The translations under genes were made by a program, and so were the position numbers. Below are positions 6,290-52,176 of a DNA stretch of 61,246 bases, one piece after another; the stretch's first letter is position 1, and each line of letters begins with the position of its first letter. The stretch covers positions 1-61,246 of the IMG/VR virus record IMGVR_UViG_3300044251_000017. One strand, given 5' to 3'. The DNA is from a virus. Taxonomy: Duplodnaviria; Caudoviricetes. A model generated the notes under the pieces. It ran no database searches. It was not told the origin of the DNA and was given only the letters and a program-made list of their open reading frames with translations.

Positions 6290-7069
6290 TTAACGAGCGA
6301 GTTGAGCTTGGAGTGCGAGGCCGAGGTGCCGCGCGTAAGCGGGAGGAATGGCCTCGTTGAGTTCCTCTTGCACGTCCGTGTGATAGAGCCCGAGCGCCAC
6401 CTGTGATTCGGCGACCGAGGGCTTGCCCCCCCCGTCGCCGTAGACGCCGTAGACCGTGCCGGAGTGCCGGACGCCATGCTTGGGGCAGGGGCGGCCGTCC
6501 TCGGCGGACGAGACGAGGCAGTTGTGGCGCCATCCGATGGTGCGATGGCCGGTGTGCAGCCCACGATGCGGCTTGGGTTCCGGCACAGCGAATCCGTCCA
6601 GCTCGAAGTACCGGTGCCGATAGGTAGCGAGACGGAAGTGCTGTCCGCAGAGCATGAGGTCCCGGCGCAACTCATCACTCACGCCGTTCTCGACCGAGGT
6701 AGCCACGCCGTACGCCGTACGCAGACGTTCGTTCATCGCACGCGTGTCCGGGATGAGGTTGACGTGGTCATCCGTCCAGCCCTCGCGAGTCCGGTTGGCA
6801 GCCGTGATGGCGATGTTGGCTTGGCACGGCGGCGAGTTGTGCACGAGCACCACCGAGCGACCCGCCGCTACCAGGCCAGCCACGAGCCGCGGAACAACTT
6901 CGAGCACGTCCCCTTGAGCGAACCGGTACGGGTAGTTCGGTTGCGGGTTGATGTCCACCCCGTACACCTCGAACCCCGCATCGGTCAGACCGCGCCCGGC
7001 GCCACCCGCGCAACAGAAGCCGTCAATGGCCACGTAGCGGGTGCCGTCGGGCGCGAACCGGTCAGTCAT
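6290..7069 (-). CDS. DNA cytosine-5 methyltransferase
   Basis: Motif I DGFCCAGG, catalytic SPPCQ, EN, RHRYFE, EAIPP. Confidence 0.85.
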   Translation of the reverse strand: MTDRFAPDGTRYVAIDGFCCAGGAGRGLTDAGFEVYGVDINPQPNYPYRFAQGDVLEVVPRLVAGLVAAGRSVVLVHNSPPCQANIAITAANRTREGWTDDHVNLIPDTRAMNERLRTAYGVATSVENGVSDELRRDLMLCGQHFRLATYRHRYFELDGFAVPEPKPHRGLHTGHRTIGWRHNCLVSSAEDGRPCPKHGVRHSGTVYGVYGDGGGKPSVAESQVALGLYHTDVQEELNEAIPPAYARHLGLALQAQLAR

Positions 7070-7482
7070 CGGACCGCGGTAACCGCGTAACGCGCGGCCT
7101 CGGCCTGGTCCACGCAGTTCGTGCCGTGCGCGGCGTAGACGAGGAAGTGCTTGCCACCGGGCTTCTCGGCGAGCTTCTGCGCCTTGGGGTCCGCAGTGAC
7201 GGCCGTGAGCGGCAACGGCAGATTGAGGTGCTCGGCGTTGGTCTTGCAGATCTTGCACTTGCAGGTGACGATCAGGCCGGTTGCGGCGCCGTCGGCGTCC
7301 TGCGTCTTGGACGCTGCGCGGACGACCTGCTCGGCCTGGTACTCCCGGATGGTCGCGAGGTGCGCCTTGGCCCGCGAGGGGCTGCCACCGGCGAGCATCT
7401 TGATGTAGTCCATCTGCTCGGCAATCAGGTCGGTCAAGTCGGCGTCGGTGTAGAGGTCCAGGATGTTCGTCGTCTCGTTCAT
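7066..7482 (-). CDS. Hypothetical protein (leaderless, CxCxxC)
   Basis: ATG 7 nt after TAACAT -10; ATGA overlap with the methyltransferase. Confidence 0.7.
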   Translation of the reverse strand: MNETTNILDLYTDADLTDLIAEQMDYIKMLAGGSPSRAKAHLATIREYQAEQVVRAASKTQDADGAATGLIVTCKCKICKTNAEHLNLPLPLTAVTADPKAQKLAEKPGGKHFLVYAAHGTNCVDQAEAARYAVTAVR

Positions 7483-13039: not shown

Positions 13040-13398
13040 GCTTTCGCCTTGGCCTTCTTGGTCTCCCAGTCGGCGACCGCCGCGCACGCCTCGGCCTTGC
13101 TCCCGGCGTTGACGTTCTGTTTTCCGGGGAAGTTCGTGTCTCCGGTGGCGCACATCTTCTTGACCACGTTGACCGCGGTAGCGATCGCCCGGGACTCGGT
13201 CATGCCCTTGGCCTCAAGGTGCTTCTTGATCCGCTTGATGAACTTGGGCAGCCCGCCAGCCTTGCTCACCCAGTTGAACTGTCCCTCGGGCAAGTCAGGC
13301 CAGCCGTCGGCGCGCGCTTCCTCTATGAAGGTGAGGACGAACGCGTCAACAGCCGCCGCGAGTGCGAGGTCTAGCGGCTGGTCGTCTCCGAGAAAGGG
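13036..13398 (-). CDS. Head-associated domain, probably expressed as a -1 frameshift extension of the protease
   Basis: NWVSKAGGLPKFIKRI...AIATAVN domain; no good own start; slippery C CCT TTC at 13398-13392. Confidence 0.6.
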   Translation of the reverse strand, partial: PFLGDDQPLDLALAAAVDAFVLTFIEEARADGWPDLPEGQFNWVSKAGGLPKFIKRIKKHLEAKGMTESRAIATAVNVVKKMCATGDTNFPGKQNVNAGSKAEACAAVADWETKKAKAKA

Positions 13399-15680
13399 GG
13401 CACCACCCCGAGCGCATCGAGCGCGTCCATGCGCCCCATCTCCAGCGCGAGCGAGCGATGGGCGGCGTCGAGCTGTGCGTCCGCCTCGTCCGCCGGCTTG
13501 CGCGCCCAATCGCCGAGCAGGTCCAAGACCAGGGCAGCCACTTTGCGGGCGAGCAGGTCCAAGTCCGTGCCGTCCGGCGAGAACGCCTCGGCGGGCCGTA
13601 CACCACCCGCAGCCACAAGCGCGGTCATCTCGCCCGAAGCGACGCGCGCACGCGTGACCGGGTAGCCCGGCGTGTTGACGGCGAGGCAGGCCACCATCTC
13701 AAGGCCGCCACGCATCGGGCGCCAGTCACCGGACGGCGTGCTCGCGAGCAGTGTCCGGATCTGTCCGTGGGACAGTTCGGGACGGACGAGGCCGTGCACC
13801 CAGATGCCGTGCGCATCCTCGCCGGCAGCCACGTCCGCGGCGGCGAGCGTGACGTTGTCGTAGTGCTTGACCGTCTCGGCGGCCGTGAGTGCGAGCGGCG
13901 CGTGGCCGAGCTCGTCCGCGGACCGACTCATCGTGATGTGGCCGACGGCGGCCGTGCGGACCTGGTCGCCGTCCATGACCCGCATGGCGCCAGTGTTGAA
14001 GTAGGCGTAGTCGCTGCCGGACCGCGGGGGCGGCGTGCACTTGTTGCCGATGCTGATGTGGCACGTCTTCCACGTGGCGATGTGCCCGAAGATCTCGCGG
14101 GTCTTCTCGTTGTAGGTCAGCGGGGTCGGCCCGGTCAGCGCCGGGTCCGTGAAGTACTCCAGTGGTGGTATGTCGGCCGGGCCCGAGGAAGTCACGGCCT
14201 TGGCCGGACCGTTACCTTTCTGCCACGCGGCCGGGATCTTGCTTTCCAGCTTGAGCTTCTTGGCCGCTGCGATGATCTTGGCCTTGGCCTTCTCGGCATC
14301 CGGCCCCTTGAGCGAGCTCGCCCCGGCGATCGCCTTGGCCAGGGTCTTGGCGTCCGTGATCGGCAGCCCGGCGGCCACGCCCTTGGTGAACGGCGGCGCC
14401 CCGGCGAACTCGGCGGCCTCGCACGGCAGGCAGTCATCCCCGAGCTCGGCGGCCCGGAAAGAACTCGCCGTCACGGCCTCGATGCCGCGGGCCTTGAGGA
14501 ACTTGACCAGGTTTTCGATGGTGCGCTCGGACTCGGGCACGATGGCGCCCATCTCGTCCACCATGACCGGCGTGTCGCCGTTGATCTCCACGTAGGCGTC
14601 CGGGAAGGCCGGGATGGCGCACAGCGTGGTGGCAGCGATGACGCCCTTGGTCACCGAGGTCTGGTGGTCCTCGCTGCCGTCCTCGTTGAACAGGATGTCA
14701 TCGGTGTAGTCCACCTCGGACAGGTCGATGCTGTTGCCCGAGAGGTAGCCCTTGAGCGCGAGCTTGCCGCCCTCGGACTCGGGGTCCGCCGTGCCGCGGC
14801 CCTGCCACACGAACGTGCCCTCTGGCATCGCCTCGCCGGTGACTTTCGAGATGAACTCGGGGCCGGGGATCTTCCAAGCCTCATCGAGCTTGCCCATGAC
14901 CTTGGCCTTGGCGTGGCCGCCGTCGCTGCCGGGGTTCTCGGTCTGCGCCAGGACGCTGATCGGCAAGGCGCGCGTGGTCAGCGAGCCGGGCTCGATGAAC
15001 CGGCCGTCTGCGGTCTTGAGGCCCTCGACGGCGAGGCAGGGGAAGAACAGCGACAGTTCGCCGTCCACCTCCTTGATCACCGGTTCGGTCTCGGTCGATG
15101 CGGTCATTTCCATCACTCCGTTCCCTGCGTATCGGCGGTCCGGTACGCCTGCGTCCTCGCCGCGCCACCCGGTCAGCGGAAAGTCGATGTTCTTGCCGCC
15201 GAGCGCCAGGCGGATCGTGGAGAACCGCACCGTGCCCTTGGCCTTGGGCAGCGTGGTTTCCGGCAGCGAGTAGCCGGCGCAGATGTGCGGCGCCCACGGC
15301 GAGAACTGGTCGGGGAACCGGCCCGAGCCGAGCACTTCGCGAGCCACGTCCATCGCGTAGTGGTGCACACCCACCATTGGGTCCGCGGGTGTGAGGGTCG
15401 TGTTGGTGCTCGGCTTGTGCGTGCCGTCCGGGCCGCCGTCGCGGTTCCAGATGGCCGGACCCATGATCTGCGCCTCGATGGGCCCGTTGTCCGCGGCGAT
15501 CTGCATCACGCGCTCGGTGAGCAGCTCCACGGTCGCCTCATCGAGATCCGTCACGTCCTTGCCGAGAAATACGAGGGTGCAGTGGATCTCACCGGCCGGG
15601 TCGCCGCCGGGCACGGTGAACATCCCGGGAGTGTCCGGGATGAGGGCGATCATGCCGCCCGTCTGTCCGTCGTCGGCCAT
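13371..15680 (-). CDS. Capsid maturation protease with N-terminal 2H phosphoesterase-like domain
   Basis: HCTL and PHIC 2H motifs; TADGR...GGH...GNSID...IPAF protease domain; GHIATW..CH, SGDWR, VNTPGYP C-terminal region. Confidence 0.8.
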   Translation of the reverse strand: MADDGQTGGMIALIPDTPGMFTVPGGDPAGEIHCTLVFLGKDVTDLDEATVELLTERVMQIAADNGPIEAQIMGPAIWNRDGGPDGTHKPSTNTTLTPADPMVGVHHYAMDVAREVLGSGRFPDQFSPWAPHICAGYSLPETTLPKAKGTVRFSTIRLALGGKNIDFPLTGWRGEDAGVPDRRYAGNGVMEMTASTETEPVIKEVDGELSLFFPCLAVEGLKTADGRFIEPGSLTTRALPISVLAQTENPGSDGGHAKAKVMGKLDEAWKIPGPEFISKVTGEAMPEGTFVWQGRGTADPESEGGKLALKGYLSGNSIDLSEVDYTDDILFNEDGSEDHQTSVTKGVIAATTLCAIPAFPDAYVEINGDTPVMVDEMGAIVPESERTIENLVKFLKARGIEAVTASSFRAAELGDDCLPCEAAEFAGAPPFTKGVAAGLPITDAKTLAKAIAGASSLKGPDAEKAKAKIIAAAKKLKLESKIPAAWQKGNGPAKAVTSSGPADIPPLEYFTDPALTGPTPLTYNEKTREIFGHIATWKTCHISIGNKCTPPPRSGSDYAYFNTGAMRVMDGDQVRTAAVGHITMSRSADELGHAPLALTAAETVKHYDNVTLAAADVAAGEDAHGIWVHGLVRPELSHGQIRTLLASTPSGDWRPMRGGLEMVACLAVNTPGYPVTRARVASGEMTALVAAGGVRPAEAFSPDGTDLDLLARKVAALVLDLLGDWARKPADEADAQLDAAHRSLALEMGRMDALDALGVVPPFSETTSR

Positions 15681-16003
15681 TAGGCGTCCTCCCACTTTCC
15701 GTTACGCACGAAGCCGTGCCGTCCACAGCTGCACAGGATCGAGGGCTCGACGTGCAACGGGTCAAGTGAGTGGACCTGCCAGCCGGGAGCACCGGGTCCG
15801 CCGGGGAGTGCCATGAAGGTCACGGTTCCCGCGCACGGCTCGCCCTCGGGGATGTGGTTGCCGCCGGATGCCGGGTGCACGTGGAAGAACCCCGCGGGAT
15901 CGACATCGCCGTGCTTGAACAGCCGAGCCCAGTGGCCGCCCCCGAGGTCGATGGCCCCGGCGTCCTTGTTGGCGAGATCGAGCAGGTAGTCAGTCTCGGC
16001 CAT
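15680..16003 (-). CDS. DUF6527-like Cys/His protein
   Basis: W....DPLHVEPSILCSCGRHGFVRNGKW. Confidence 0.6.
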   Translation of the reverse strand: MAETDYLLDLANKDAGAIDLGGGHWARLFKHGDVDPAGFFHVHPASGGNHIPEGEPCAGTVTFMALPGGPGAPGWQVHSLDPLHVEPSILCSCGRHGFVRNGKWEDA

Positions 16004-16235
16004 CGAGCGCCTCCGGGTTGACCTGCTGGTAGCGCGCGACGGACGCGTTGGCGTGCATCGCGGCGAGGTCCAGCGCGTCGAGGCTCTTGGTCTTGGCGTC
16101 ACCCTCGATGAGCAGGGCGTTGATCCACTTGGCGAGTTCGTGGACGTGCGTGCGGATCTGCTCGTGCGCGGCGACGATGTCCGCGCTGGACGGCGGGTGG
16201 TACGCGAATCGCTCGGCGAGTTCGGCGCTGTTCAT
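15990..16235 (-). CDS. Acb2/Tad1-like helical-hairpin protein
   Basis: RFAYHPP...HEQIR...KSLDALDLAAMHANASVAR. Confidence 0.6.
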   Translation of the reverse strand: MNSAELAERFAYHPPSSADIVAAHEQIRTHVHELAKWINALLIEGDAKTKSLDALDLAAMHANASVARYQQVNPEALDGRD

Positions 16236-18811
16236 GAGAGTCCCCTCTTGTGGATCCAGTTCTCTTGCACGGCCACCATGGCGTCACGCTGGTCCCGCGT
16301 GCGTTGAGCGGTCGTCCCCGTGCGCCCGGCGGCATCGTCGAGGTCTGCGAGCATCCGCTCGTTGCGCATCGACTCGGTCTCGGTGGCCACGTCCGCCGCG
16401 GCCACCTCGGTCGCCTCGTCCACCGCCCACGCCATGACGTAGTCACACATGCAGCCGTTGTGGTCGCCCGGCTGCATGAACAGGCCCACCCACTCGTAGC
16501 CGGGCGGGGGCTTGAGCTCGGGGTCCTCGAAGCCGGCGAACCGGCGGCCGGCGAGGTGGAGGTGCGGCTCGAACGCGCGGACCCGGTCGGTGATGCCGTA
16601 GCGCCAGGTGAACCCGAGCGGCTCGGCCTGGTGAGAGATCACCCGGACAATGTCGTCGCCGGTCGCCAGGCCACCGCCCATCGAGTCGCCCCCGCCGATC
16701 TCGGTCAGCGCCTCGCGCACGTCGCCCGGCAGCACGAGGGTGTCGGGCACCTCGCCGCGCAGTTCGTCGCCCTGGCGCCCGTACATCTTGTCCAGCGCGC
16801 GCTTCTTGAGCGAGCCCTCGAACCGCTTCCAGGCGCTCGGAATGCGCGAGGTGAGCGACTGCGCGAGCGTGGCTTGCGAGGTGAGCGAGATCGGAACGAG
16901 CTTGGCCGCGGCCTTGATGGCGGTCTTGATCGCTCCCGCTGTCCACTTCGCGAACTGAGTAGACAGGATGGCGAACGCCGCGGCGAGCAACGCGTCCTCG
17001 GCCAACCCGAGCTCGGCTATCCGCGCCTGCCCGAGCGTCTCCCCCACGGTCATCGCGTCGGCGCCCTTAACCAGTACGGCCATCGAGCTGTGGTTGGCGG
17101 CCTTGGCCTTGATGCGGTTACCGGCCTTCTCGACGGCGCGCAGCACGGCGTCATCCCCTGCCTGGCGCAGGCGCTCCCGTAGCGCCCGGTCGATCTCGGC
17201 GAGCACCTCGGCCGTGATGATGGCCGGCTCGGGCGCGGCACTGGCCACCTGCGGGACCGGCTGCCGCGGGGTCGTGCCGGGTGCGGCGCCGGGACCGATC
17301 TGCGCAGGCTGGTCGTCGCGGACGGCCTGCCCCTGGATGACCTGCGGGACCGGTGCGGGCTTGGGTTCCTTGAGCCCGAGCAGGATCGTGGCGAGCTGCG
17401 CGGCCACGTCCGGGGAAGACGAGGTCGACTTGATCATCTGGATCTGCCGGAGGTCGTCCTCGTCCGGCGCGTCCTCGTCCGAGAAGCCCTTGGCGTCGCG
17501 GTAGGCCTTGAACGAGATGGCGCCCTTGTCCATCGCCGAGTCCGCGTCCGCCGAGCGGTTCGCGTTCTCGGTGACGTTGCCCGCGTCGTACCAGATCTGG
17601 ACCGACAGGGCCTCGTCCTTGGTGAGGCCGTAACCGCCGTTCGCCTCGGGCAGGCGCAGCTTGCGGCGGAAGTAGCTCATAGTCAGCGAGTCGACGATCA
17701 TCCGCACGTCCGGCTCGATGTAGTTCTTGAACGTCGAGGCGTCGATCAGCCACCCCGTCCAGTGGTTCACCGAGCTCATCGAGCTGCCCGAGTCGCCGGT
17801 GCCCATCATCTCGCTCGGCAGGTTGATGCCGTCCGCGATGCGCATGAGGGCCGCCGTCTGCTTGTTGAGCAGCTCAGGTGAGGTCTCGCGCTCGAACGTG
17901 ACGTGCCGGAACTCCTTGAGATCCTCGGCGTCGCCGCGCAGCACCATCGGCACGATCGCCCCGGCGTCACCCTCGTTGTTGATGGGCGAGGTCATGCCCG
18001 CGGTGAAATCAGCCTGGAAGGTGTCCGTCTCGGGCTCGGCGGCGTCCGGCTCGGCGGTCTTGGAGAACGACAGTTCGTTGGGCACGAGCACGATGCCGTT
18101 GGCGGCGATGCGAGACCGGGCCGCGGCGCGCAGCTCGCGCCCGATGAGGATCACGTCCTCGCACACGTCCATCATCAGCCGCATCGGCGAGTCGGCCAGA
18201 CCGGACCACTGGGGGTGCGGCACCCACAGCCGGATGAGTGCCTCGGTCGTGACGTTGATCGGCCGGGCTGCCTTGCCGGGGATCTCGACGATGCCGAGCC
18301 CGCCGGTGGACGGGATGACCTCGCTCGTGGATCGGACCTTCCACTGCTCGTCCCCGTCGGCGTCCTCGAAGCCGTGCAACCAGCACTCGCCGGCGATATC
18401 GAAGCCCTGCGAGATCATGCCCTGAAAGCTGTAGCCCTCCTCGAACGGCAGCGAGGCCAGGCAGTCAATGGCGGCGTCGATGACGTGCTGATCGAGGACC
18501 GGCTTGTCGTCCTCGTCTACGTCCTCTGTCGGGTCGCCGGTGAGCTTGCGAGGTTCGTCGTCACCGGTCGACACCGCAGCGGCCACGAACTTGACCTTGG
18601 AGATGATGTTGGCTTTGAGGCGCAGCGCCGCGCCGAGCTCGCCGATGTTGTCCCGGTAGTTCCAGGCGATCGCCTGCCAGGCCATCTTGGTGGCCGACAG
18701 GGTGCTGACGACGTTGCGGTCTTGCAGGTCGATGACCATGCCCGAGGCGGTGAACCCGCGGGTGTTCTTGCTCGGCGTCGCCTTGCGCTGCCTGTTCCAG
18801 AACGAGGACAT
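16232..18811 (-). CDS. Portal protein with MuF-like C-terminal extension
   Basis: IAGECW, RLWVPHP..SGLADSP, SRIAANG, NHWTGW; C-terminal H..L.G...PGDHNGCMC. Confidence 0.85.
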   Translation of the reverse strand: MSSFWNRQRKATPSKNTRGFTASGMVIDLQDRNVVSTLSATKMAWQAIAWNYRDNIGELGAALRLKANIISKVKFVAAAVSTGDDEPRKLTGDPTEDVDEDDKPVLDQHVIDAAIDCLASLPFEEGYSFQGMISQGFDIAGECWLHGFEDADGDEQWKVRSTSEVIPSTGGLGIVEIPGKAARPINVTTEALIRLWVPHPQWSGLADSPMRLMMDVCEDVILIGRELRAAARSRIAANGIVLVPNELSFSKTAEPDAAEPETDTFQADFTAGMTSPINNEGDAGAIVPMVLRGDAEDLKEFRHVTFERETSPELLNKQTAALMRIADGINLPSEMMGTGDSGSSMSSVNHWTGWLIDASTFKNYIEPDVRMIVDSLTMSYFRRKLRLPEANGGYGLTKDEALSVQIWYDAGNVTENANRSADADSAMDKGAISFKAYRDAKGFSDEDAPDEDDLRQIQMIKSTSSSPDVAAQLATILLGLKEPKPAPVPQVIQGQAVRDDQPAQIGPGAAPGTTPRQPVPQVASAAPEPAIITAEVLAEIDRALRERLRQAGDDAVLRAVEKAGNRIKAKAANHSSMAVLVKGADAMTVGETLGQARIAELGLAEDALLAAAFAILSTQFAKWTAGAIKTAIKAAAKLVPISLTSQATLAQSLTSRIPSAWKRFEGSLKKRALDKMYGRQGDELRGEVPDTLVLPGDVREALTEIGGGDSMGGGLATGDDIVRVISHQAEPLGFTWRYGITDRVRAFEPHLHLAGRRFAGFEDPELKPPPGYEWVGLFMQPGDHNGCMCDYVMAWAVDEATEVAAADVATETESMRNERMLADLDDAAGRTGTTAQRTRDQRDAMVAVQENWIHKRGLS

Positions 18812-25246: not shown

Positions 25247-25275
25247 ATCATACCCCCCAATACAGGGGGACACAA
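25247..25275 (-). promoter_or_regulatory. Promoter TTGTGT-17-TATGAT with box
   Basis: TTGTGT ccccctgtattgggggg TATGAT. Confidence 0.85.
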
Positions 25276-25321
25276 CCTGGCAGGCGAGTGAATCTCTCCC
25301 CTTTTCTCAGGTACGTCTTAT

Positions 25322-25348
25322 CCCCCAATACAGGGGGTCGGATACGCT
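25322..25348 (+). promoter_or_regulatory. Offset-box promoter of the transfer-like operon
   Basis: cccccaatacaggggg-tcgga-TACGCT-6 nt-ATG. Confidence 0.7.
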
Positions 25349-25354
25349 TAGGCG

Positions 25355-25591
25355 ATGAGGATACGAACCGTCATCGCGCTTGCCGCCGTCATCGCGGTCG
25401 GCGTCTCGATCACGACCGGGGACGCGGTACTCGCGGCCGGGGTCATCGTGCTGTACGTGGTCCAGCTGTTCATTCGCGACGCGGTCCAACGGCGGTCCCG
25501 CGAGGACGCCTGGAACGCGGTCCGCTACAACGTCATGTCGTCGGACATCGATCCAGCAGCCCGGTGGTCTCGTCGGGGCGGTGATGAGTGA
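25355..25591 (+). CDS. Small 2-TM membrane protein (leaderless)
   Basis: Two hydrophobic helices; first gene of plus-strand operon. Confidence 0.65.
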   Translation: MRIRTVIALAAVIAVGVSITTGDAVLAAGVIVLYVVQLFIRDAVQRRSREDAWNAVRYNVMSSDIDPAARWSRRGGDE

Positions 25592-26019
25592 TGCCGATCG
25601 CCAACTACACCTCCGAGGTGAGCGCGGTCCGGTCCGCCGACGAGATCCAAAAGATGCTCGTGCGGACCGGGGCACGCGGGGTGGTCCAGGAATACAACGA
25701 GACCGGTCGCATGGTCTCAATGTCCTTCACCATCGTGCGGTCCGGGACCACGATGGGCTTCACGCTGCCAGTGAGGTCCGAGGCGGTCCGCCAGGTGCTC
25801 ATCCGACAAAAGGTCCCGCGCAAGTTCCAGACGCTCGTACACGCAGACCGCGTCGCCTGGCGCATCCTGCGGGACTGGATTCGCGCGCAGATGGCGATCA
25901 TCGAGACGGAGATGGTCTCGATCGAGCAGGTCATGCTTCCGTACATGCGTACAGATGATGGCTCCACGGTGTTCGAGCGCTACGAGACCACGCGGGCGTT
26001 GCCTGCGGGGAAGGTCTGA
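25588..26019 (+). CDS. Conserved-looking phage hypothetical protein
   Basis: NYTSEV...EIQKML...RVAWRILRDWIRAQ...LPYM. Confidence 0.75.
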   Translation: MMPIANYTSEVSAVRSADEIQKMLVRTGARGVVQEYNETGRMVSMSFTIVRSGTTMGFTLPVRSEAVRQVLIRQKVPRKFQTLVHADRVAWRILRDWIRAQMAIIETEMVSIEQVMLPYMRTDDGSTVFERYETTRALPAGKV

Positions 26020-26021
26020 TC

Positions 26022-26843
26022 ATGGCCACGCCTGCCCGCGGCGCCCGGTTCGTCGCAACGTTCGGTTTCGCGTTCGGGTCTCTCGTCTCGATCGCCGCCA
26101 ACGTCCTGGCCGAGCGCATCCCGCCTGCTCCCACGCCTCTCGGCTGGACGCCGGCGCTCGATGCGCAGCTCGGCGCCCCCGTCTGGCCGATCGCCCTCCT
26201 GCTCGCCGTCGAGGCGCTCACCCGAATCCCCTGGCCCAAGGGTCTCGGCTGGCTGGCCGCGCGCTACCTCGGCGTGACCGGCGTCGCGGTGTTCGCCGGG
26301 GTGATCTCCTACTTCCACATCCACGATGTGCTCGTCTCGTGGCGGTACCAGCCGTTCGCCGCGAGCGTCGGACCGCTCGTCATTGACGGCCTCATGGTGG
26401 TCTCGGGTGTGGGCCTCATGGCACTCGCCAAGGTCCGCGAGGGCGAGTCGGACCTTGTGGTCCAGAACCACGGTCTCGTGTCGGACCGGCCAGTCGAGCG
26501 GTCCGCGGTCCGGGACTCGGTCAATGGTCCGGTCCCGGACCTCGACGATGGTCCGGCCGTCGACTGGACCCCGGTCCCGAGCGAGCGCGCCGAGCCGGTC
26601 CCGGACCGCAGTACCGAGCCGGTCCGCATCCAGCGGCGGTCCGCTGCCGCGAGCAAGACGAGGACCACCCGGACCGCGCGCCCGGTGACCGCGTCGGTAC
26701 CAACCGATGACGAGATCTCGGCGTTCATCCGAACCGCTGAGACCGCGCCCACCAAGCGGTCCGTCATGAGCAAGTACGGCGTCGGGTCCGGCAGGGCCCT
26801 GCGACTGATCAACGAGGCCAAGGAGGCCGAGACCAATGGGTAA
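26022..26843 (+). CDS. DUF2637/Spd-like membrane protein with C-terminal HTH-like domain
   Basis: SIAANV, ISYFHI, GPLVIDGL, 4 TM; Pro/Arg linker; PTKRSVMSKYGVGSGRALRL. Confidence 0.7.
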   Translation: MATPARGARFVATFGFAFGSLVSIAANVLAERIPPAPTPLGWTPALDAQLGAPVWPIALLLAVEALTRIPWPKGLGWLAARYLGVTGVAVFAGVISYFHIHDVLVSWRYQPFAASVGPLVIDGLMVVSGVGLMALAKVREGESDLVVQNHGLVSDRPVERSAVRDSVNGPVPDLDDGPAVDWTPVPSERAEPVPDRSTEPVRIQRRSAAASKTRTTRTARPVTASVPTDDEISAFIRTAETAPTKRSVMSKYGVGSGRALRLINEAKEAETNG

Positions 26844-28773
26844 GAAGTCTCAGGGAGGTGCGCTCGATGTCGCAGGCGGGGTGATCCTCGCCAAGCTCGG
26901 ATTGTGGCTCGCCGGCAAGCTCGGCAAGGGCGTGCGCCGACTCGCGTTCCGATGGCGCCGGGCGCTGTCGCCGGTGTTCTTCGGGTTTGTGGTCTGGCTG
27001 GTCTCGGTCATCGCCAGGGCGCTGGTCCCGCAGTGGTGGGCGGTCGCGCTGGTCCTGCCCGTGTTCGGCATCGCCGTCGCCTGGTTCGGGCCCAAGCTCG
27101 GGGACCGCTGGTCCGCGTTCGTCATGCGCCTGGTCCCCACGGGACTCGACTCGGGCGTGAGCGGCGTGATGGACCGGCCGATCGAGCGCATTTACTTCGG
27201 TTCGCTGGTCTCGCTCATCGGCGTCTACATGGCGGTCCGCATCGGCGCCGGACCGTCCGACTTCACCGGCTGGTTCTGGAAGATCGGCCTGCTGCTCTAC
27301 GGCGGGTCGTGGTGGTACCACCGACGAGTCCGGACCGCGGGCCGGGCGGACCGCTACGCGCGCAAGTTCGTCAAGTTCGCGGACCGGGACCGGTGCCCGG
27401 ACACGCTGCGCCCGTTCATCGGCTGCAAGGTGACCGCGGTCAAGGGCAAGGGCCGGGTCGCCATGCTGACTGTCCGGCTCGCCGAGGGCATGACGGTCGA
27501 TGTCGTCTCACGTCTCACCAAGCCCCTGGCCTCGGCCTTCTCGATGCGGCCGGCCTCGGTGTTCATCAAGGAGGACCCGACCAACGCCCGGTCCGTGGTG
27601 ATCACCTTCCTGCCGTCGGACCCGTGGAAGGGCAAGATCGATCACCCGATGCCCGAGCCCGGCACGATCTCGCTCAAGTCGGTGGCCAAGCGGTTCGCCA
27701 TGGGCCTCTACGCCGACGGCCGCGAGCTGCTCTACGACTTGCAGCACACCTTGGTGGTCGGCCAGACCGGCTCGGGCAAGTCGATCTGGCTGCATAGCCT
27801 CATGACCTGGCTGACCGCCTGCTCGGACACGATCATCGTGGCCATCGACATGGCCGGTGGGGCGACCCTCGGTGTGTGGCGGAAGTGCCTGGCGCTGCCG
27901 CTCGCGGACGATCTGGCCTCGGCCATCGTGATCCTCGAAGCCGTCTTCAACGTGATCAAGGATCGTGAGCGGGCGCTCGGCAAGGCGTCCGAGGAGGACG
28001 ACGACGCCGCGGACAGCTTCGAGCCGTCGGCCAAGACGCCGTGGCTCATCCTCGTGATCGACGAATTCCCGGACCTGCTCGCCGAAGCCAAGGCCACGAG
28101 CAGGGGCGATAACCAGGGAACCTACGAGAAGGTGATCAACAACCTGTTGATGCGCATCGGCAAGAAGGCGCGCAAGTGCGGGGTCCGTTTGATCTTCGCG
28201 TCGCAGAACGGCACCAAGCCGGACCTCGGCTCGAAGGAACTTCAGGCCCAGTTGCGCGCCGTCGTCGGCCTGGCCCTCGACGCACAGCAGTCCCGCAACC
28301 TCTGGCAGTCTCTCGAACGGCTCGGCTGGAACAGCACCCACCTGCGGGAAGGCCAGTTCCTCTTGCGGGACGACTACCACACCGTGCCCGACGCGGCGAA
28401 GGGGTTCTTCGTCTCCAACCAGGCGCGCCGTCGGCACGTCATGGCCGCCTACGAGCTGCACAAGACCCTCGAACCGTCGGCCTGGCAGGCCCTCTGCGGA
28501 CTGGATGCCACGCTCGTCATGCCCGTGGAGACCGTCGAGCCCGTGGAACCCGTCCTCGATCACCTGCGCGAGCAGGGGCCGGCCAAGGTGGACACGCTCG
28601 TGGACCGCATCGGCGAGATCAGCCGGGCGACCGTGTACCGGCGGCTCAAGGCGTACGCCGAGCAGGGTCTCGTGGTCAACCGCAACGGCACCTGGCGCCT
28701 GCGCAAGGACTCGGATGTGGACGAGTCCGCGCAGGTGGACGAGGGTCCGGACGCAAGCGCGGACGCCGCGTAA
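26836..28773 (+). CDS. traB: TraB-like FtsK/SpoIIIE DNA translocase
   Basis: N-terminal TMs, Walker A GQTGSGKS, Walker B LVIDE, ASQ, C-terminal wHTH ISRATVYRRL...GLV...GTW. Confidence 0.8.
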   Translation: MGKKSQGGALDVAGGVILAKLGLWLAGKLGKGVRRLAFRWRRALSPVFFGFVVWLVSVIARALVPQWWAVALVLPVFGIAVAWFGPKLGDRWSAFVMRLVPTGLDSGVSGVMDRPIERIYFGSLVSLIGVYMAVRIGAGPSDFTGWFWKIGLLLYGGSWWYHRRVRTAGRADRYARKFVKFADRDRCPDTLRPFIGCKVTAVKGKGRVAMLTVRLAEGMTVDVVSRLTKPLASAFSMRPASVFIKEDPTNARSVVITFLPSDPWKGKIDHPMPEPGTISLKSVAKRFAMGLYADGRELLYDLQHTLVVGQTGSGKSIWLHSLMTWLTACSDTIIVAIDMAGGATLGVWRKCLALPLADDLASAIVILEAVFNVIKDRERALGKASEEDDDAADSFEPSAKTPWLILVIDEFPDLLAEAKATSRGDNQGTYEKVINNLLMRIGKKARKCGVRLIFASQNGTKPDLGSKELQAQLRAVVGLALDAQQSRNLWQSLERLGWNSTHLREGQFLLRDDYHTVPDAAKGFFVSNQARRRHVMAAYELHKTLEPSAWQALCGLDATLVMPVETVEPVEPVLDHLREQGPAKVDTLVDRIGEISRATVYRRLKAYAEQGLVVNRNGTWRLRKDSDVDESAQVDEGPDASADAA

Positions 28774-28860
28774 GTGCGCTCGTCTCACGGTCGCAGGTAT
28801 CAGCGCCCGTACGTAACGTGCGCAGACGGGTGAGATCATCCGCGATTTGAGACGATCAAG

Positions 28861-28905: not shown

Positions 28906-28948
28906 GGCCCCGAACCCGGACGAATCTCATCCGGGTTCGGGGCTTTCT
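28906..28948. terminator. Intrinsic terminator between convergent operons
   Basis: GCCCCGAACCCGGA...TCCGGGTTCGGGGC-TTTC. Confidence 0.8.
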
Positions 28949-33090: not shown

Positions 33091-33582
33091 CTACGCGGTC
33101 TCCCCGAGCATCCGCCGTTTGCGGATCACCTTCTGTACCGTGCCGCAATCCTCGCGGTACATCCGGCCGCCCGGCGAGCGCCACCGGCCATCGGACATCC
33201 GGGTCCAGTCCGCCGGAGAATGCACGTCCGTGCGCTCGGTGCGGTTCGCCGGCGCCTGCCACTGCCGGGTGGTCGCGAGCGGATCCGAGTTGTCCACCTC
33301 GGTGAGCGCGTCGAGCTCGTAGTCCTCGCCCTTCCACCGGCTGTACGCGGCCACCTGCGCCTCGGTGAACGCCGACGACAGGCCATCGAGGATCTGCCGG
33401 GAACCCGAGGCGACCACCGCCCACCCGCGCGCCTGCGGTGTCGAGATGCGGACCTTGCCGTCCGGCATCACGTCGAGGCGCAGATCGAGCGAGCGGACCC
33501 GGTGGGGCGTGCTCAACGGCGGCCCCACGATCCCGTCGGGCCCGAGTCGATGCGTCTCACCTTGACGCCGGATCTCGGTCAT
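33091..33582 (-). CDS. Hypothetical protein downstream of terminase
   Basis: ATGA overlap; HSPADW...DGRWRSPGGR. Confidence 0.7.
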   Translation of the reverse strand: MTEIRRQGETHRLGPDGIVGPPLSTPHRVRSLDLRLDVMPDGKVRISTPQARGWAVVASGSRQILDGLSSAFTEAQVAAYSRWKGEDYELDALTEVDNSDPLATTRQWQAPANRTERTDVHSPADWTRMSDGRWRSPGGRMYREDCGTVQKVIRKRRMLGETA

Positions 33583-35372
33583 GTCCGTCTCAGGCTCGCG
33601 CCGAGTCGATCAATCTGCGGACTCCCGGCCTGCGACGGACGGGTGGACACCGTGCCCTGCGACCGGGAGAGAGACGTGTCTCCGGACCCGCGAGACATCT
33701 GATCGAGACCGTGCACGCAGGCGTCCATGCGGTCCGGGGAGTCCTGCGATTCCTGCCAGGCCACCATCTGGTGGACGAGTTCCATGTGATAGCCGACGTG
33801 GTGCACGCGGCCGGTCTCGTGCAGCGGTGCCACCATCTTGGCGCGGTACGTCTTGGAGCCCACCGCGCTGAATCCCCGGATCGGCAGGCCGGTGGCCGCA
33901 GGCAGCGCGAGCACGTTCGGCACGAGCGGCCAGAGCTCGCGGAGATCCCGCTCGATGCGGACGATCTCCTCGGCATCGGCGTCGTCACGGGCCACGAGCG
34001 CGACGGCCTGATCGAGCACGTCCGGCGGGGGCAGGGCCGGACGGCGGCCGAGCACGTTGCGGTAGGGGTCCAGGGTGTGCAGCGCCCGGGCTTCGCGCAG
34101 GATGTCCTTCCACGCGAGCTTGGCCGAGCGACGCAGGCCCGAGAGTGACTTCTCGTAGCGGACCGCGGTGGCCCCGACGCGCAGCGCCAGGAGGAGGGCG
34201 ACGCGGAACCAGCGCGCGACGGTCATGTGATCGGACTCGTCCGCCAGGACGTAGTAGTGCTGGTTGGCCGTCCGGCCCACCGCGACGATCCCGGCCTCAT
34301 CCCCGTCTCCCTCGTTGTCCGCGGGGTCCACGAACACCTCGATCTTTTGCAGCTCGGGCGCGGCCTTGACCCGGTTGTTGTTGATCCATTCGAGCTGGAA
34401 GACACCACCGGCCGGCGGCGACGGCTCGGCCTGGTAGAGCGCGGCCCAGAACCGTTCGCCCACGTCCTTGCGGATCTGTAGCCAGTCGGCCTCGGTCCGG
34501 CCGCGGGTGCTCACGAGGTACTCGCCCGGCTTGCGCCCGAGCGGGTCTTTCTTCTTGGCCTGCGCCGGGATGATGAGGTGACGGAACCGCGGCGTATCGG
34601 CGAGGTCGTCCTTGAGCATGAGCGAGCCGATGAGGTCGTCTTCGTGCCACCGTGTCCCGATGATGATCACGATCGCCGAGGGCGACAGCCGGGTAGTGAC
34701 GACGGATTCGTACCAGTCGCGAATGTGCTTGCGCTGTTGGGCGTTGTCGGCTTGCTTCGAGTTCTTGATCGAGTCGTCAATGATCATCACATCGGCCGAG
34801 CGGCCGGTGAGCGCGCCACCCACACCGACAGCGATCATGCCGCCGTTGCGCCGGCCGGGCCCGTCGATCAGGTTCCAGTTCGTCTGCTGCGCCCGGTCGG
34901 GGTCCAGCAACAGGCCGAGGTGGTCGTCCTGGTGGCGGCTCGCGCGGTCGCCCTTGTAGCCACCGCCGTAGGTCTCGATCTGCTGCCGGACGGCAAGCCC
35001 GGACCGCGCGGCCACGCCCTGCTCGTAGGACGCGACGATGATGCGGCGGGTCGGGTCACGCAGCAACAGCCACAGCGGGCCGGCCGTGCCCATCCGCTGC
35101 GTCTTGCCTTCCTGCGGTGGGGTGCTGATGATCCATCGCCGCTGGAACCCGGCGTCCGCCGAGATGATCACCTTGTCCAGCGCCACCATCATCTCGGTCT
35201 GCACCGTGTCCGGCTGCACGAACCGCGCGAGGTGGCCCGGCGAGGGGAACTCCTGTAGCGCCTTCTTGCGTCGCAGGATGCGATCTAGTCGCAGCTGCGC
35301 GAGACGGCGCTCGGCGGGGTTGAGCTCGTCCAGCTTCGCGCGGATCTGCGCGTCCAGCGGTGGGGCGGTCAC
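33579..35372 (-). CDS. terL: Terminase large subunit
   Basis: PPQEGKT, LTGRSAD..IIDD, GTRWHEDD, ALYQ, VDPA, SPDRMDA. Confidence 0.93.
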   Translation of the reverse strand: MTAPPLDAQIRAKLDELNPAERRLAQLRLDRILRRKKALQEFPSPGHLARFVQPDTVQTEMMVALDKVIISADAGFQRRWIISTPPQEGKTQRMGTAGPLWLLLRDPTRRIIVASYEQGVAARSGLAVRQQIETYGGGYKGDRASRHQDDHLGLLLDPDRAQQTNWNLIDGPGRRNGGMIAVGVGGALTGRSADVMIIDDSIKNSKQADNAQQRKHIRDWYESVVTTRLSPSAIVIIIGTRWHEDDLIGSLMLKDDLADTPRFRHLIIPAQAKKKDPLGRKPGEYLVSTRGRTEADWLQIRKDVGERFWAALYQAEPSPPAGGVFQLEWINNNRVKAAPELQKIEVFVDPADNEGDGDEAGIVAVGRTANQHYYVLADESDHMTVARWFRVALLLALRVGATAVRYEKSLSGLRRSAKLAWKDILREARALHTLDPYRNVLGRRPALPPPDVLDQAVALVARDDADAEEIVRIERDLRELWPLVPNVLALPAATGLPIRGFSAVGSKTYRAKMVAPLHETGRVHHVGYHMELVHQMVAWQESQDSPDRMDACVHGLDQMSRGSGDTSLSRSQGTVSTRPSQAGSPQIDRLGASLRRT

Positions 35373-51648: not shown

Positions 51649-52176
51649 TCAGGCGTTGACGATGGTGCCGGTTTCGATGTAGAGGCGCAGGAAGCGTTCG
51701 ACTGCGGAAGGAACGCTCTCACCCGAGGACTCGATGCGCTTCCACACATCGGCCTTTTGCAGCTCGGGCACCTTGAACCGGATGCGCTTGCGGTCCTCGC
51801 CGTACTGGCGAGGCTTGATCTTCGGGACCTCGAAGCGGACGGCGAAGTCCGTCCAGTCGCCGTCGAGCGTGACCTCGCCGTACTCGAACTCGGCGGTCTC
51901 GCCGTAGATCTTGATCCCTGCCTGCTCGGCGGCGTCCTCGGTCGGATAGATCTCGCCGTCCCACTTCCCTTCGGGGCTCGCGAGCACGAAGCCGGTCGGT
52001 CGCTTGGCGGTCGCGGCAGCCGTGAACAACGCAGCACGGGTGACAGCGGCGAGCCGCTCACCTTGGCGCTGTGCCCGAGCAAGGGCGGCGTCGTGCACGG
52101 TGACATCGATCCACAGCTCAACCGTGACCGGCGGACTCTGTGCCGCGGGTGCGCTTTCTGTCGTCTGCGTGTTCAT
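51649..52176 (-). CDS. Protein with two ribbon-helix-helix-like domains (leaderless)
   Basis: VELWID...AALARAQRQG..LAAVTRAAL and RIRFKVP...ESSGESVPSAVERFLRLYI. Confidence 0.65.
   Translation of the reverse strand: MNTQTTESAPAAQSPPVTVELWIDVTVHDAALARAQRQGERLAAVTRAALFTAAATAKRPTGFVLASPEGKWDGEIYPTEDAAEQAGIKIYGETAEFEYGEVTLDGDWTDFAVRFEVPKIKPRQYGEDRKRIRFKVPELQKADVWKRIESSGESVPSAVERFLRLYIETGTIVNA

Follow-up and report, generated by a model that had tools for sequence, protein, structure and literature searches.

This work concerns a cluster of short DNA words in a tailed phage known from the IMG/VR record IMGVR_UViG_3300044251_000017; the window analysed is the whole of that record, 61,246 nucleotides (nt). 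Over about 2.2 kb of it (25459..27622, unstranded), the pentamer GGWCC, in which W is A or T, occurs 49 times, and 21 of these copies are part of the heptamer CGGWCCG. The sites are written into four genes: orfA, orfB, the gene of a DUF2637-like membrane protein, and traB, which encodes an FtsK/SpoIIIE (TraB-type) DNA translocase. The excess is not explained by composition, and the words are built by synonymous and non-synonymous codon choices alike. Judging from the sequences, the best explanation is that the array is a dense field of short candidate protein-binding sites, kept by selection on the DNA itself, and that it would act in cis as the partner of the cassette that carries it. Comparison with related cassettes has confirmed that the array, at first noticed in one phage, is a family-wide feature that switches its motif between lineages.

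The sites form three blocks: 13 at 25459-25816, over the 3' part of orfA and orfB; 21 at 26370-26789, mostly over the linker of the DUF2637-like gene; and 15 at 27024-27622, over the part of traB that encodes the N-terminal membrane region. A site-free gap of 558 nt lies over the membrane-domain coding part of the DUF2637-like gene, and the 240 nt that encode its linker (26454-26693) carry 16 of the 21 sites of this gene. The overlap with traB is confined to its first 790 nt, the other sites being in the three upstream genes. The original prediction, made from the letters alone, had counted by hand about 50 GGWCC and about 20 CGGWCCG in 25490-27620, with about 21 GGWCC in 26365-26790; a recount gave 46, 21 and 21, respectively. 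These numbers correspond to 21.6 GGWCC per kb, compared to 4.0 per kb in the rest of the genome, and to 9.9 CGGWCCG per kb, compared to 0.8. In sliding windows of 500 nt, the median number of GGWCC is 2, the 95th percentile 5 and the maximum 19, and all of the windows with at least eight copies fall within 25251-27500. The heptamer occurs 68 times in the entire genome, a number reached by none of 100 dinucleotide-preserving shuffles (38.8 +/- 6.2), and 21 of the 68 are concentrated in the 2.1 kb of the array. A de novo k-mer analysis recovers the same word in an extended form, GCGGTCCG/CGGACCGC, with 14 occurrences observed and 0.63 expected. Within 25490-27620, 28 sites read GGTCC and 18 GGACC; both W orientations and all three codon phases are used across the four genes, and no clear helical period was found among the site spacings.

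Could the proteins alone dictate such a pattern? The enrichment persists under codon-preserving shuffling, the control on which the original prediction had been staked. When synonymous codons were shuffled within each gene, 1000 times for orfB, for the DUF2637-like gene and for the first 786 nt of traB, the DUF2637-like gene retained 21 GGWCC compared to 8.4 +/- 2.1 (0/1000) and 9 CGGWCCG compared to 2.5 (0/1000); the traB segment had 14 GGWCC compared to 5.9 (0/1000), and orfB 9 compared to 4.3 (6/1000). Resampling of codons from the background of the locus, with the proteins unchanged, gave 5.5 +/- 2.0 for the 21 sites of the DUF2637-like gene and 4.8 +/- 1.6 for the 14 of traB (0/500 each). 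The means of the shuffles exceed the genome average, so that the amino-acid sequence itself leans towards the word; protein composition is nonetheless insufficient, as had been argued from the presence of sites in both orientations and in neighbouring genes. A second claim, that GTCTC/GAGAC is over-represented as well, holds for the raw count, 19 in the region or 8.9 per kb compared to 2.2 elsewhere. Against synonymous shuffles this signal is weak (8 vs 5.0, 27/1000, in the DUF2637-like gene; 9 vs 4.2, 6/1000, in traB; 5 vs 4.0, 309/1000, in orfB), so that the excess is mostly due to protein and codon composition.

The window's translocase has about 80 homologues, 35-88% identical to it and many on contigs of 58-63 kb. 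The loci compared, numbered with an L below, were 22 viral ones, 4 from genomes and 27 from metagenomes, several of which duplicate viral ones, and the array region was taken as -1400 to +800 from the start of traB and compared with the rest of each locus. In every relative whose flanks are long enough to tell, the cassette stands on the plus strand amid minus-strand genes, and across related cassettes this position is filled by no fewer than six different words. Class A, with strong CGGWCCG/GGWCC, comprises the window, L007, L008, L012 (=L037), L015, L016, L018, L019, L020, L023, L043 and L044, and class Aw, with weaker GGWCC in other flanks, L011, L013, L014, L033 and L036. Class B has (C/T)GGTACC(G) or GTACC (L022, L026, L017 and, weakly, L041); class C has (C)TGGCAC(C/T)G (L021, L040), class D CACCAGG/CGCCAG (L027, L029, L032), class F CC(A/G)ACCA (L050), and class G CTCCAG/CTGGAG (L046). 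The words of classes A and B are palindromic, and those of C, D and F are not. In the phylogeny of the cassette, class A is one clade with a single origin (support of 96 in the SH-like approximate likelihood ratio test, SH-aLRT). Its 11 relatives of the window, L007 to L044, have 41-64 GGWCC in the array region, and the background is 2.9-5.7 per kb in the rest of L007, L008, L012, L015, L016, L018, L019 and L023.

Protein-preserving resampling of 18 loci gave 0/500 in both segments for 10 of them and in the traB segment only for L011, L013, L017 and L022; for L027 and L032 the result was 2-4/500. In three full records, the word of the lineage clusters only at the cassette: 22 of the 36 CGGTACC in the 60.5-kb record of L026 lie within 1.5 kb there, as do 16 of 37 hits of its own word in L022 and 14 of 35 CTGGCAC in L021. 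The record of L026 also has, at 52040-52160 and far from the cassette, three CGGTACC(G) palindromes with an exact spacing of 57 nt, probably a tandem repeat. A blind scan found no comparable cluster beside the TraB homologues of 23-30% identity (L048, L049, L051, L052, L054, L056 and L058), nor in L030 and L031. No local word was seen in L024, L030 and L031, and L009 and L010 have a weak CTTCGG signal only.

Four class A loci (L012, L015, L016 and L018), which form a subclade, have a second enriched word, CGGTAC/GGTAC, in the same region: 16-20 copies of CGGTAC compared to about 1.2 expected in L015, L016 and L018, and 25 GGTAC compared to 3.4 in L012, where GTA codons are also in excess (7/46 vs 3/143). 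The array reader of this subclade may accept both CGG-W-CCG and CGG-TA-CCG.

Coding sequence bears the marks of this second demand. In L021, the rare alanine codon GCA makes up 19 of 59 alanine codons within the array and 3 of 139 outside, and the rare valine codon GTA is used 12/43 times within and 7/126 outside in L026, and 7/38 and 8/133 in L022. At one conserved stretch of TraB, 11 of 13 class A loci encode Arg-Thr (CGG ACC G) or Arg-Ser (CGG TCC G), and the alternation between Thr and Ser corresponds to the W of the word. In most other classes this place is taken by Arg-Val, Arg-Ile or Arg-Arg, the exceptions being L026 (Arg-Thr, CGG ACC G), L040 (Arg-Thr, AGG ACC) and L024 (Arg-Ser, CGC AGC). 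A few codons further on, Arg-Ala-Asp and Arg-Ser-Glu each give a site. With regard to conservation, nine directed pairwise comparisons show 23-71% of sites kept as sites and 8-45% of other 5-mers identical; the ratio is about 1.6 to 3.9, and sites are the better kept in all nine. Between the window and L007, for example, 18 of 36 sites are kept, compared to 316 of 1624 other 5-mers. At 65% DNA identity, about half of the sites occur in one lineage only, and together with the conservation this points to both retention and turnover.

These data bear directly on the proposition that the array has no function and simply results from repeated amino acids or biased codon usage. With its many V, R, P, D and S residues, the linker does favour such words, and in Streptomyces plasmids the repeated 8-mers of DUF2637 genes are plain peptide repeats, in the same frame, on the same strand and with a 21-nt period. 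The phage array, however, uses all three frames and both orientations with irregular spacing; it survives protein-preserving shuffles, recruits rare codons, keeps its sites above background and switches words between lineages, so that this proposition is barely credible.

The position of the cassette, between the terminase/HNH genes and the portal gene, calls to mind a packaging (pac/cos) signal or an iteron-type replication origin, and repeated short sites are typical of pac sites and origins. Yet the array lies 6 kb from the gene of the large terminase and 17 kb from those of the replication initiator and DnaB, on the sole oppositely transcribed module. It also travels with the cassette. The class D cassettes are located in Amycolatopsis chromosomes, adjoining host genes (ComEC in L032; SURF1 and a phosphatase in L029), and resemble actinomycete integrative and conjugative elements (AICE); L029 has a GntR/UTRA regulator nearby and a split traB, and no phage gene lies within 3.5 kb of the Amycolatopsis loci. 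The membrane protein of L050 (1599-2540) is circularly permuted, with the helix-turn-helix first, then a linker rich in Q, P and T, and the DUF2637 membrane domain last; the array is still in the linker DNA and the 5' part of traB, with sites also in the 245-nt gap before traB. Since the array follows the cassette into the permuted L050 and into chromosomal loci, it belongs to the cassette and not to the packaging or replication modules, and a role in packaging or origin function appears extremely improbable.

The linker may also be tolerant in another respect. Inspection by eye reveals an HNH-type endonuclease-like segment before the C-terminal domain of the DUF2637-like frame in L016:2471-3499 and L020:2419-3489, and a GIY-YIG-type one at the corresponding place in L046:1331-2761; homing endonucleases seem to insert into the linker of this gene.

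Another suggestion is that the words are read by a host factor or belong to restriction-modification, the reader being a host protein or the phage's own methyltransferase (6290-7258), and that they differ as hosts differ. Classes A and B are short palindromes of the kind that Type II enzymes cut, CGGWCCG and GGTACC are presumably known restriction sites, the phage does encode a DNA methyltransferase, and host switching would fit the correlation of class and phylogeny too. On the other side, CGGWCCG is not depleted elsewhere, with 47 copies outside the region compared to about 38.8 expected for the entire genome; classes C, D and F are not palindromic; and the excess is confined to one cassette, also when this resides in chromosomal elements, for which no such logic is known. 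This suggestion is highly improbable.

Which protein, then, reads the array? Two candidates are encoded by the cassette, and both domains named in the original prediction are present, a C-terminal helix-turn-helix-like (HTH-like) domain in the membrane protein and a C-terminal winged helix in TraB. The membrane protein (26022..26843, plus strand, 273 aa) was described by Pfam, AlphaFold models and hydropathy. Its match to DUF2637 (PF10935, residues 80-144) is marginal, 23.2 bits with a cut-off of 22.8; NCBI/UniRef give the name DUF2637 to homologues that share 45-65% identity with its membrane half. These come from Amycolatopsis, Kutzneria, Saccharothrix, Kibdelosporangium, Pseudonocardia and others, which makes mycelial Pseudonocardiales the probable hosts. 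The protein consists of a helical membrane part (1-144), a disordered linker (145-224) and a C-terminal three-helix domain (229-272). In the AlphaFold model, long helices extend to residue 150, the confidence (predicted local distance difference test, pLDDT) is below 50 at 145-224, and a three-helix bundle occupies 229-272; modelled alone, this domain reaches a mean pLDDT of 81. TraB (26836..28773, plus strand, 645 aa; PF01580, E 2.8e-09, and PHROG FtsK/SpoIIIE-like families) has a hydrophobic segment at residues 42-88, a P-loop motor, and a winged helix at about 572-622 (HVO_A0261_N, HTH_20); in its family, its N-terminal membrane segment and its C-terminal winged helix it agrees with the translocase of Streptomyces-type TraB/clt transfer systems.

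The C-terminal domain of the membrane protein was aligned for 27 loci, and this protein and TraB were compared by the 9-mers of their recognition helices only. In the membrane protein, 'G-S-G-R-A-L-R-L' is found in 10 of 12 class A rows, the remaining two differing from it conservatively; in class Aw the stretch reads 'G-S-(T/N/D)-R-A-L-(R/K)-I', in class B 'G-T-x-R-A-(G/T)-x-I-A', and in classes C and E it takes other forms. The TraB helix 'S-R-A-T-V-(Y/F)-R-(R/K)-L' is shared by loci of classes A, Aw, B and C. Out of 261 pairs of different class, none differs by at most one residue in the helix of the membrane protein, compared to 26 for TraB, and the mean number of differences within a class is 1.3 for the membrane protein and 2.2 for TraB. 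The original prediction had proposed, as a check, to see whether homologues carry their own words, varying with the HTH sequence; descriptively this is so, and statistically it has no force, as independent-pairs tests leave only 1-2 supported contrasts (p 0.5-1). On this description, which is not a test, the membrane protein is the favoured candidate for the reader.

By analogy with the classical clt loci of Streptomyces plasmids, the array would instead be read by TraB's own C-terminal winged helix, and the membrane protein would be an accessory Spd-like pore or anchor. The window's TraB has the winged-helix domain, a third of the sites are in traB, and the clt of pWTY27 reaches 16 bp into its tra gene. 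Against this, the TraB 9-mer is identical in seven pairs of different words (e.g., L014 and L036 compared with L017 and L041, or L013 with L040) and exists in five forms in class A in spite of a constant word there; joint change of TraB recognition helix and word was thus not observed, in a comparison that covers the 9-mer only and few independent contrasts. The reading of the array by TraB is rather unlikely. Two further candidates were pursued around TraB and rejected. GACCGG/CCGGTC, considered as a class-independent TraB word, is over threshold in 14 of 15 loci, but once overlaps with GGWCC are removed, enrichment is left in L008 alone (P 8e-05), with marginal values in L007 and L040; no class-independent repeated word that the conserved TraB helix could read was found locally. 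A natural domain swap in L017 was also dismissed: its TraB groups with those of other GGTACC-class loci (SH-aLRT 99), so that the identity of its helix to the Aw class reflects conservation and not recombination.

The C-terminal domain of the membrane protein recalls the gamma domain of FtsK, and this is, weakly, a lead. Aligned by hhalign with ten gamma domains from true FtsK proteins, it gave P 2.3e-4 and a probability of 45%; the controls gave P 0.1 and 0.6% for the C-terminal domain with the TraB winged helix, and P 0.015 and 3% for the TraB winged helix with gamma. In Foldseek, FtsK gamma chains rank highest in the list for probability, TM-score and identity (28-29%), and the hit to one of them, 2ve8_C (E 1.9, probability 0.72, TM-score 0.56), is not significant. 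A profile search of the PDB touches the gamma recognition helix (2j5p_A, E 0.45). PF09397, the FtsK gamma family, matched 0 of 27 members of the C-terminal domain family, and the Pfam scan gave no consistent family for it.

Taken together, these observations suggest that the predicted DNA-binding protein of the cassette itself uses the array as a clt-like field for capture and loading, a reading that has in our view an even chance of being right. The three-helix C-terminal domain, on its disordered tether of about 80 residues, would read the array; multivalent binding to many sites would hold the phage DNA at the membrane beside the TraB-type hexameric pump; the pump would thereby load on phage DNA rather than on host DNA, and would move double-stranded DNA (dsDNA) across the septum or between hyphal cells, in the manner of clt in Streptomyces conjugative plasmids. 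The sites would be mainly in tether-coding DNA because the tether tolerates almost any sequence. The biological role would be in spread, segregation or regulation. A bolder form of the same idea, which is possible and still doubtful, is that a family of soil actinophages of about 60 kb moves its dsDNA genome between hyphal compartments or cells without virions, by means of a self-encoded conjugation-type pump, a gamma-like reader on a separate membrane protein and a coding-embedded loading zone of 2 kb that is rewritten, through rare codons and amino-acid changes, as the specificity of the reader drifts.

Several points weigh against a loading field read by the membrane protein. The motif classes follow the phylogeny of the cassette, so that the covariation of helix and word could be shared descent. 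In the published systems the repeats are recognised by the winged helix of TraB itself (PMC3583192, citing Vogelmann 2011), and PMC4447253 describes the binding of SpdB2 as non-specific. The gamma resemblance is below significance everywhere (E 0.45 in the profile search, Foldseek E above 1, hhalign 45%), and the 'G-x-G-x-x-R-A' stretch matches a helix-hairpin-helix-like part of the ribosomal protein uS13 equally well by sequence, a match that would suggest non-specific DNA binding. L009 and L024 have both proteins and no word excess by protein-preserving resampling, and L010, also with both, has little or no array by k-mer counts. The array is 10 to 40 times longer than the clt loci described so far, and whereas FtsK-orienting polar sequences (KOPS) and TraB recognition sequences (TRS) are directional, the words of classes A and B are palindromes without skew. 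As to the array-poor loci themselves, the contigs of L009 and L024 measure about 150-155 kb; these two and L010 carry the same two-gene cassette with little or no local word excess within the 8.8 kb examined, and the membrane-protein helix of all three is unlike that of any array-bearing class.

The remaining explanations concern the genome as a whole. The record is complete (61,246 bp, linear, CheckV 100%), and from its predicted proteins the phage is a siphovirus: family searches identified the major tail, major head, portal and tape measure proteins, together with the large terminase, an HNH endonuclease, an endolysin, DnaB, a replication initiator, SSB, Erf and a DNA methyltransferase. A gene call based on GC content at third codon positions (GC3) predicted 73 genes, nearly all of the long ones on the minus strand, the sole exception among these being the plus-strand cassette at 25355-28773. 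About 50 of the 73 proteins were scanned, and among these no integrase, ParA or ParB was found, in keeping with the prediction that the phage manages without ParAB.

This absence gives some weight to a centromere-like tether, which the original prediction had named first, ahead of a clt-like site; in this reading the membrane protein would fix the phage DNA for carrier or plasmid-like inheritance or for capture in spores, with TraB as the pump and no spread from cell to cell. A membrane anchor, a long tether and a DNA-binding domain would suit tethering well, and the virulent phage phi29 is trapped in spores via host Spo0J sites. About 23 of the 73 predicted genes, small ones, fall outside the scan, however, so that a lysogeny or partition gene may have been missed, and the genome otherwise resembles that of a lytic siphovirus (endolysin, Erf, SSB, DnaB). 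The computation gives nothing that separates tether from transfer, and a tether of this kind is unlikely.

Alternatively, a cassette protein might coat its own operon and keep a potentially lethal translocase quiet, in a kil-kor-like autoregulation or silencing. In Streptomyces plasmids, unregulated traB is toxic and is held by a repressor (PMC4447253). The proteins scanned beside the cassette of the window include no GntR-type repressor, L029 and the plasmids do have one, and the sites lie over the operon. A repressor, however, needs a few promoter operators and not some 49 sites over 2.2 kb, a membrane-tethered repressor would be unusual, and the candidate upstream operator has a different sequence. 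This operator is a pair of 22-nt direct repeats (25248-25269 and 25316-25337, unstranded), found by a repeat search, 91% identical and 68 nt apart, directly upstream of orfA; each copy contains a G/C hairpin of 5-7 bp, and neither is related in sequence to the array word. The pair is possibly the promoter or operator of the cassette, and autoregulation by the array is very unlikely.

The cassette is opened by orfA (25355..25591, plus strand), from the GC3 gene call, with 78 aa and, by hydropathy, a hydrophobic N-terminus at residues 1-44; no Pfam or PHROG family was above threshold for it. It is followed by orfB (25588..26019, plus strand), which encodes a soluble protein of 143 aa that matches phrog_17260 (E 3.9e-07), a family of unknown function, and no Pfam family. 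In the gap where traB and the following minus-strand gene converge, a scan for terminator-like structures detected a hairpin with a perfect 17-bp stem (28907..28943, unstranded), which is likely a bidirectional terminator closing the cassette. Two sequencing runs from a different study contain a sister strain about 96% identical over 25300-28800 of the window (146 substitutions and 24 gap letters over 3501 bases), its contigs measuring 59.7 kb and 8.1 kb; its differences, as far as they are listed (40 of 186), are concentrated in orfA, with indels at 25538-25575. The run search returned 6 runs from 4 studies, soil metagenomes where the organism was named, and no RNA dataset was listed. Elsewhere in the genome, the large terminase (33579-35372) lies 15 kb from the portal gene with the oppositely oriented cassette between them, which is not how packaging genes are usually arranged; two large portal-like or MuF-like proteins are encoded in tandem on the minus strand (13371-15695 and 16232-18811); and the methyltransferase already mentioned, on the same strand, matches phrog_363 (E 2.6e-22) and nothing in Pfam at E <=1.

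What would follow if the loading field were real? Tailed phages of mycelial actinomycetes would carry a working conjugation module plus its cis site, the boundary between infection and conjugation would be blurred, and the array would offer a recodable handle for testing the spread of phage DNA independently of virions. The idea that Spd homologues on actinophages help phage DNA to spread was put forward in passing in PMC4447253, and no follow-up was found in the literature searched. Whatever their role, the arrays are a clean natural example of a coding region bent to a second, DNA-level code, with a visible cost in codon usage. They are useful for studying how a DNA-binding domain and its sites co-evolve, and in metagenomes the local excess of a word is an easy mark by which to recognise cassettes of this kind. 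The literature searched, which covered few subscription journals, yielded no account of arrays embedded in the coding sequence of phage traB cassettes.

With regard to known systems, parS lies within parB/spo0J and is a palindrome of 16 bp present in one or a few copies. The phage array is similar in that cis sites lie inside the coding sequence of the binding protein's operon and would be bound multivalently, and it differs in having a word of 5-7 bp in dozens of copies and no ParB-type domain or ParA among the proteins scanned. FtsK gamma with KOPS, and SpoIIIE with its recognition sequences (SRS), share with the proposed loading field the principle that a short DNA word tells a hexameric dsDNA pump where to load. 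KOPS, however, are polar 8-mers spread along the chromosome with a strand skew; nothing of this kind was seen in the phage genome, where the word is unskewed, clustered in 2.2 kb and without excess outside. The gamma-like domain would also be on a separate protein and, in the model, has helices only and no wing.

The spread proteins of the SpdB2 type are oligomeric integral membrane proteins; according to PMC4447253, PMC3583192 and PMC5133688, SpdB2 binds dsDNA non-specifically, forms pores and interacts with TraB. The phage protein is a putative relative of them, and the label 'Spd-like' of the original prediction stands on the borderline DUF2637 match and on the presence of DUF2637 genes 1-3 genes from traB in three Streptomyces plasmids. 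The plasmid proteins (L060:2139-3698 in pFP4, L061:8087-9805 in pTFSG2 and L062:7639-9444) are longer, with 519-601 aa, and have a coiled-coil spacer where the phage protein has its disordered linker, and their tail looks similar to the C-terminal domain of the phage protein. The repeated 8-mers in the genes of pFP4 and pTFSG2 were considered as a case of the same phenomenon and set aside as in-frame peptide repeats: nearly all share a single frame and strand, many follow one another every 21 nt, and they encode an Ala/Glu/Arg coiled coil.

The closest comparison is with the clt loci themselves, which in Streptomyces are short plasmid-specific direct repeats bound by the cognate TraB (PMC4447253, PMC3583192 and PMC5133688); PMC5133688 gives the consensus for pSVH1, and PMC3583192, citing Vogelmann 2011, assigns recognition to helix 3 of the winged helix. 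The Streptomyces systems also have a divergent GntR-type repressor, TraR/KorA, of which the window's scanned cassette neighbours have no counterpart and L029 and two plasmids do. The loci described in these sources measure about 50-175 bp, with 3-9 mostly direct repeats, are largely non-coding and are read by TraB. The array of the window, in a tailed phage, has about 49 copies over 2.2 kb and is almost wholly coding, at the 5' side of traB and in the genes upstream; in classes A and B its words are palindromic and in both orientations, and they do not track the TraB helix. What the Streptomyces conjugative plasmids and AICE (pSVH1, pIJ101, pJV1 and pWTY27) have in common with the phage cassette is an FtsK-like winged-helix translocase beside short, element-specific repeats, of 5-9 bp in the plasmids. 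In the phage, as in pWTY27, short repeated words overlap the tra gene, in an array that is much larger and placed at its 5' side.

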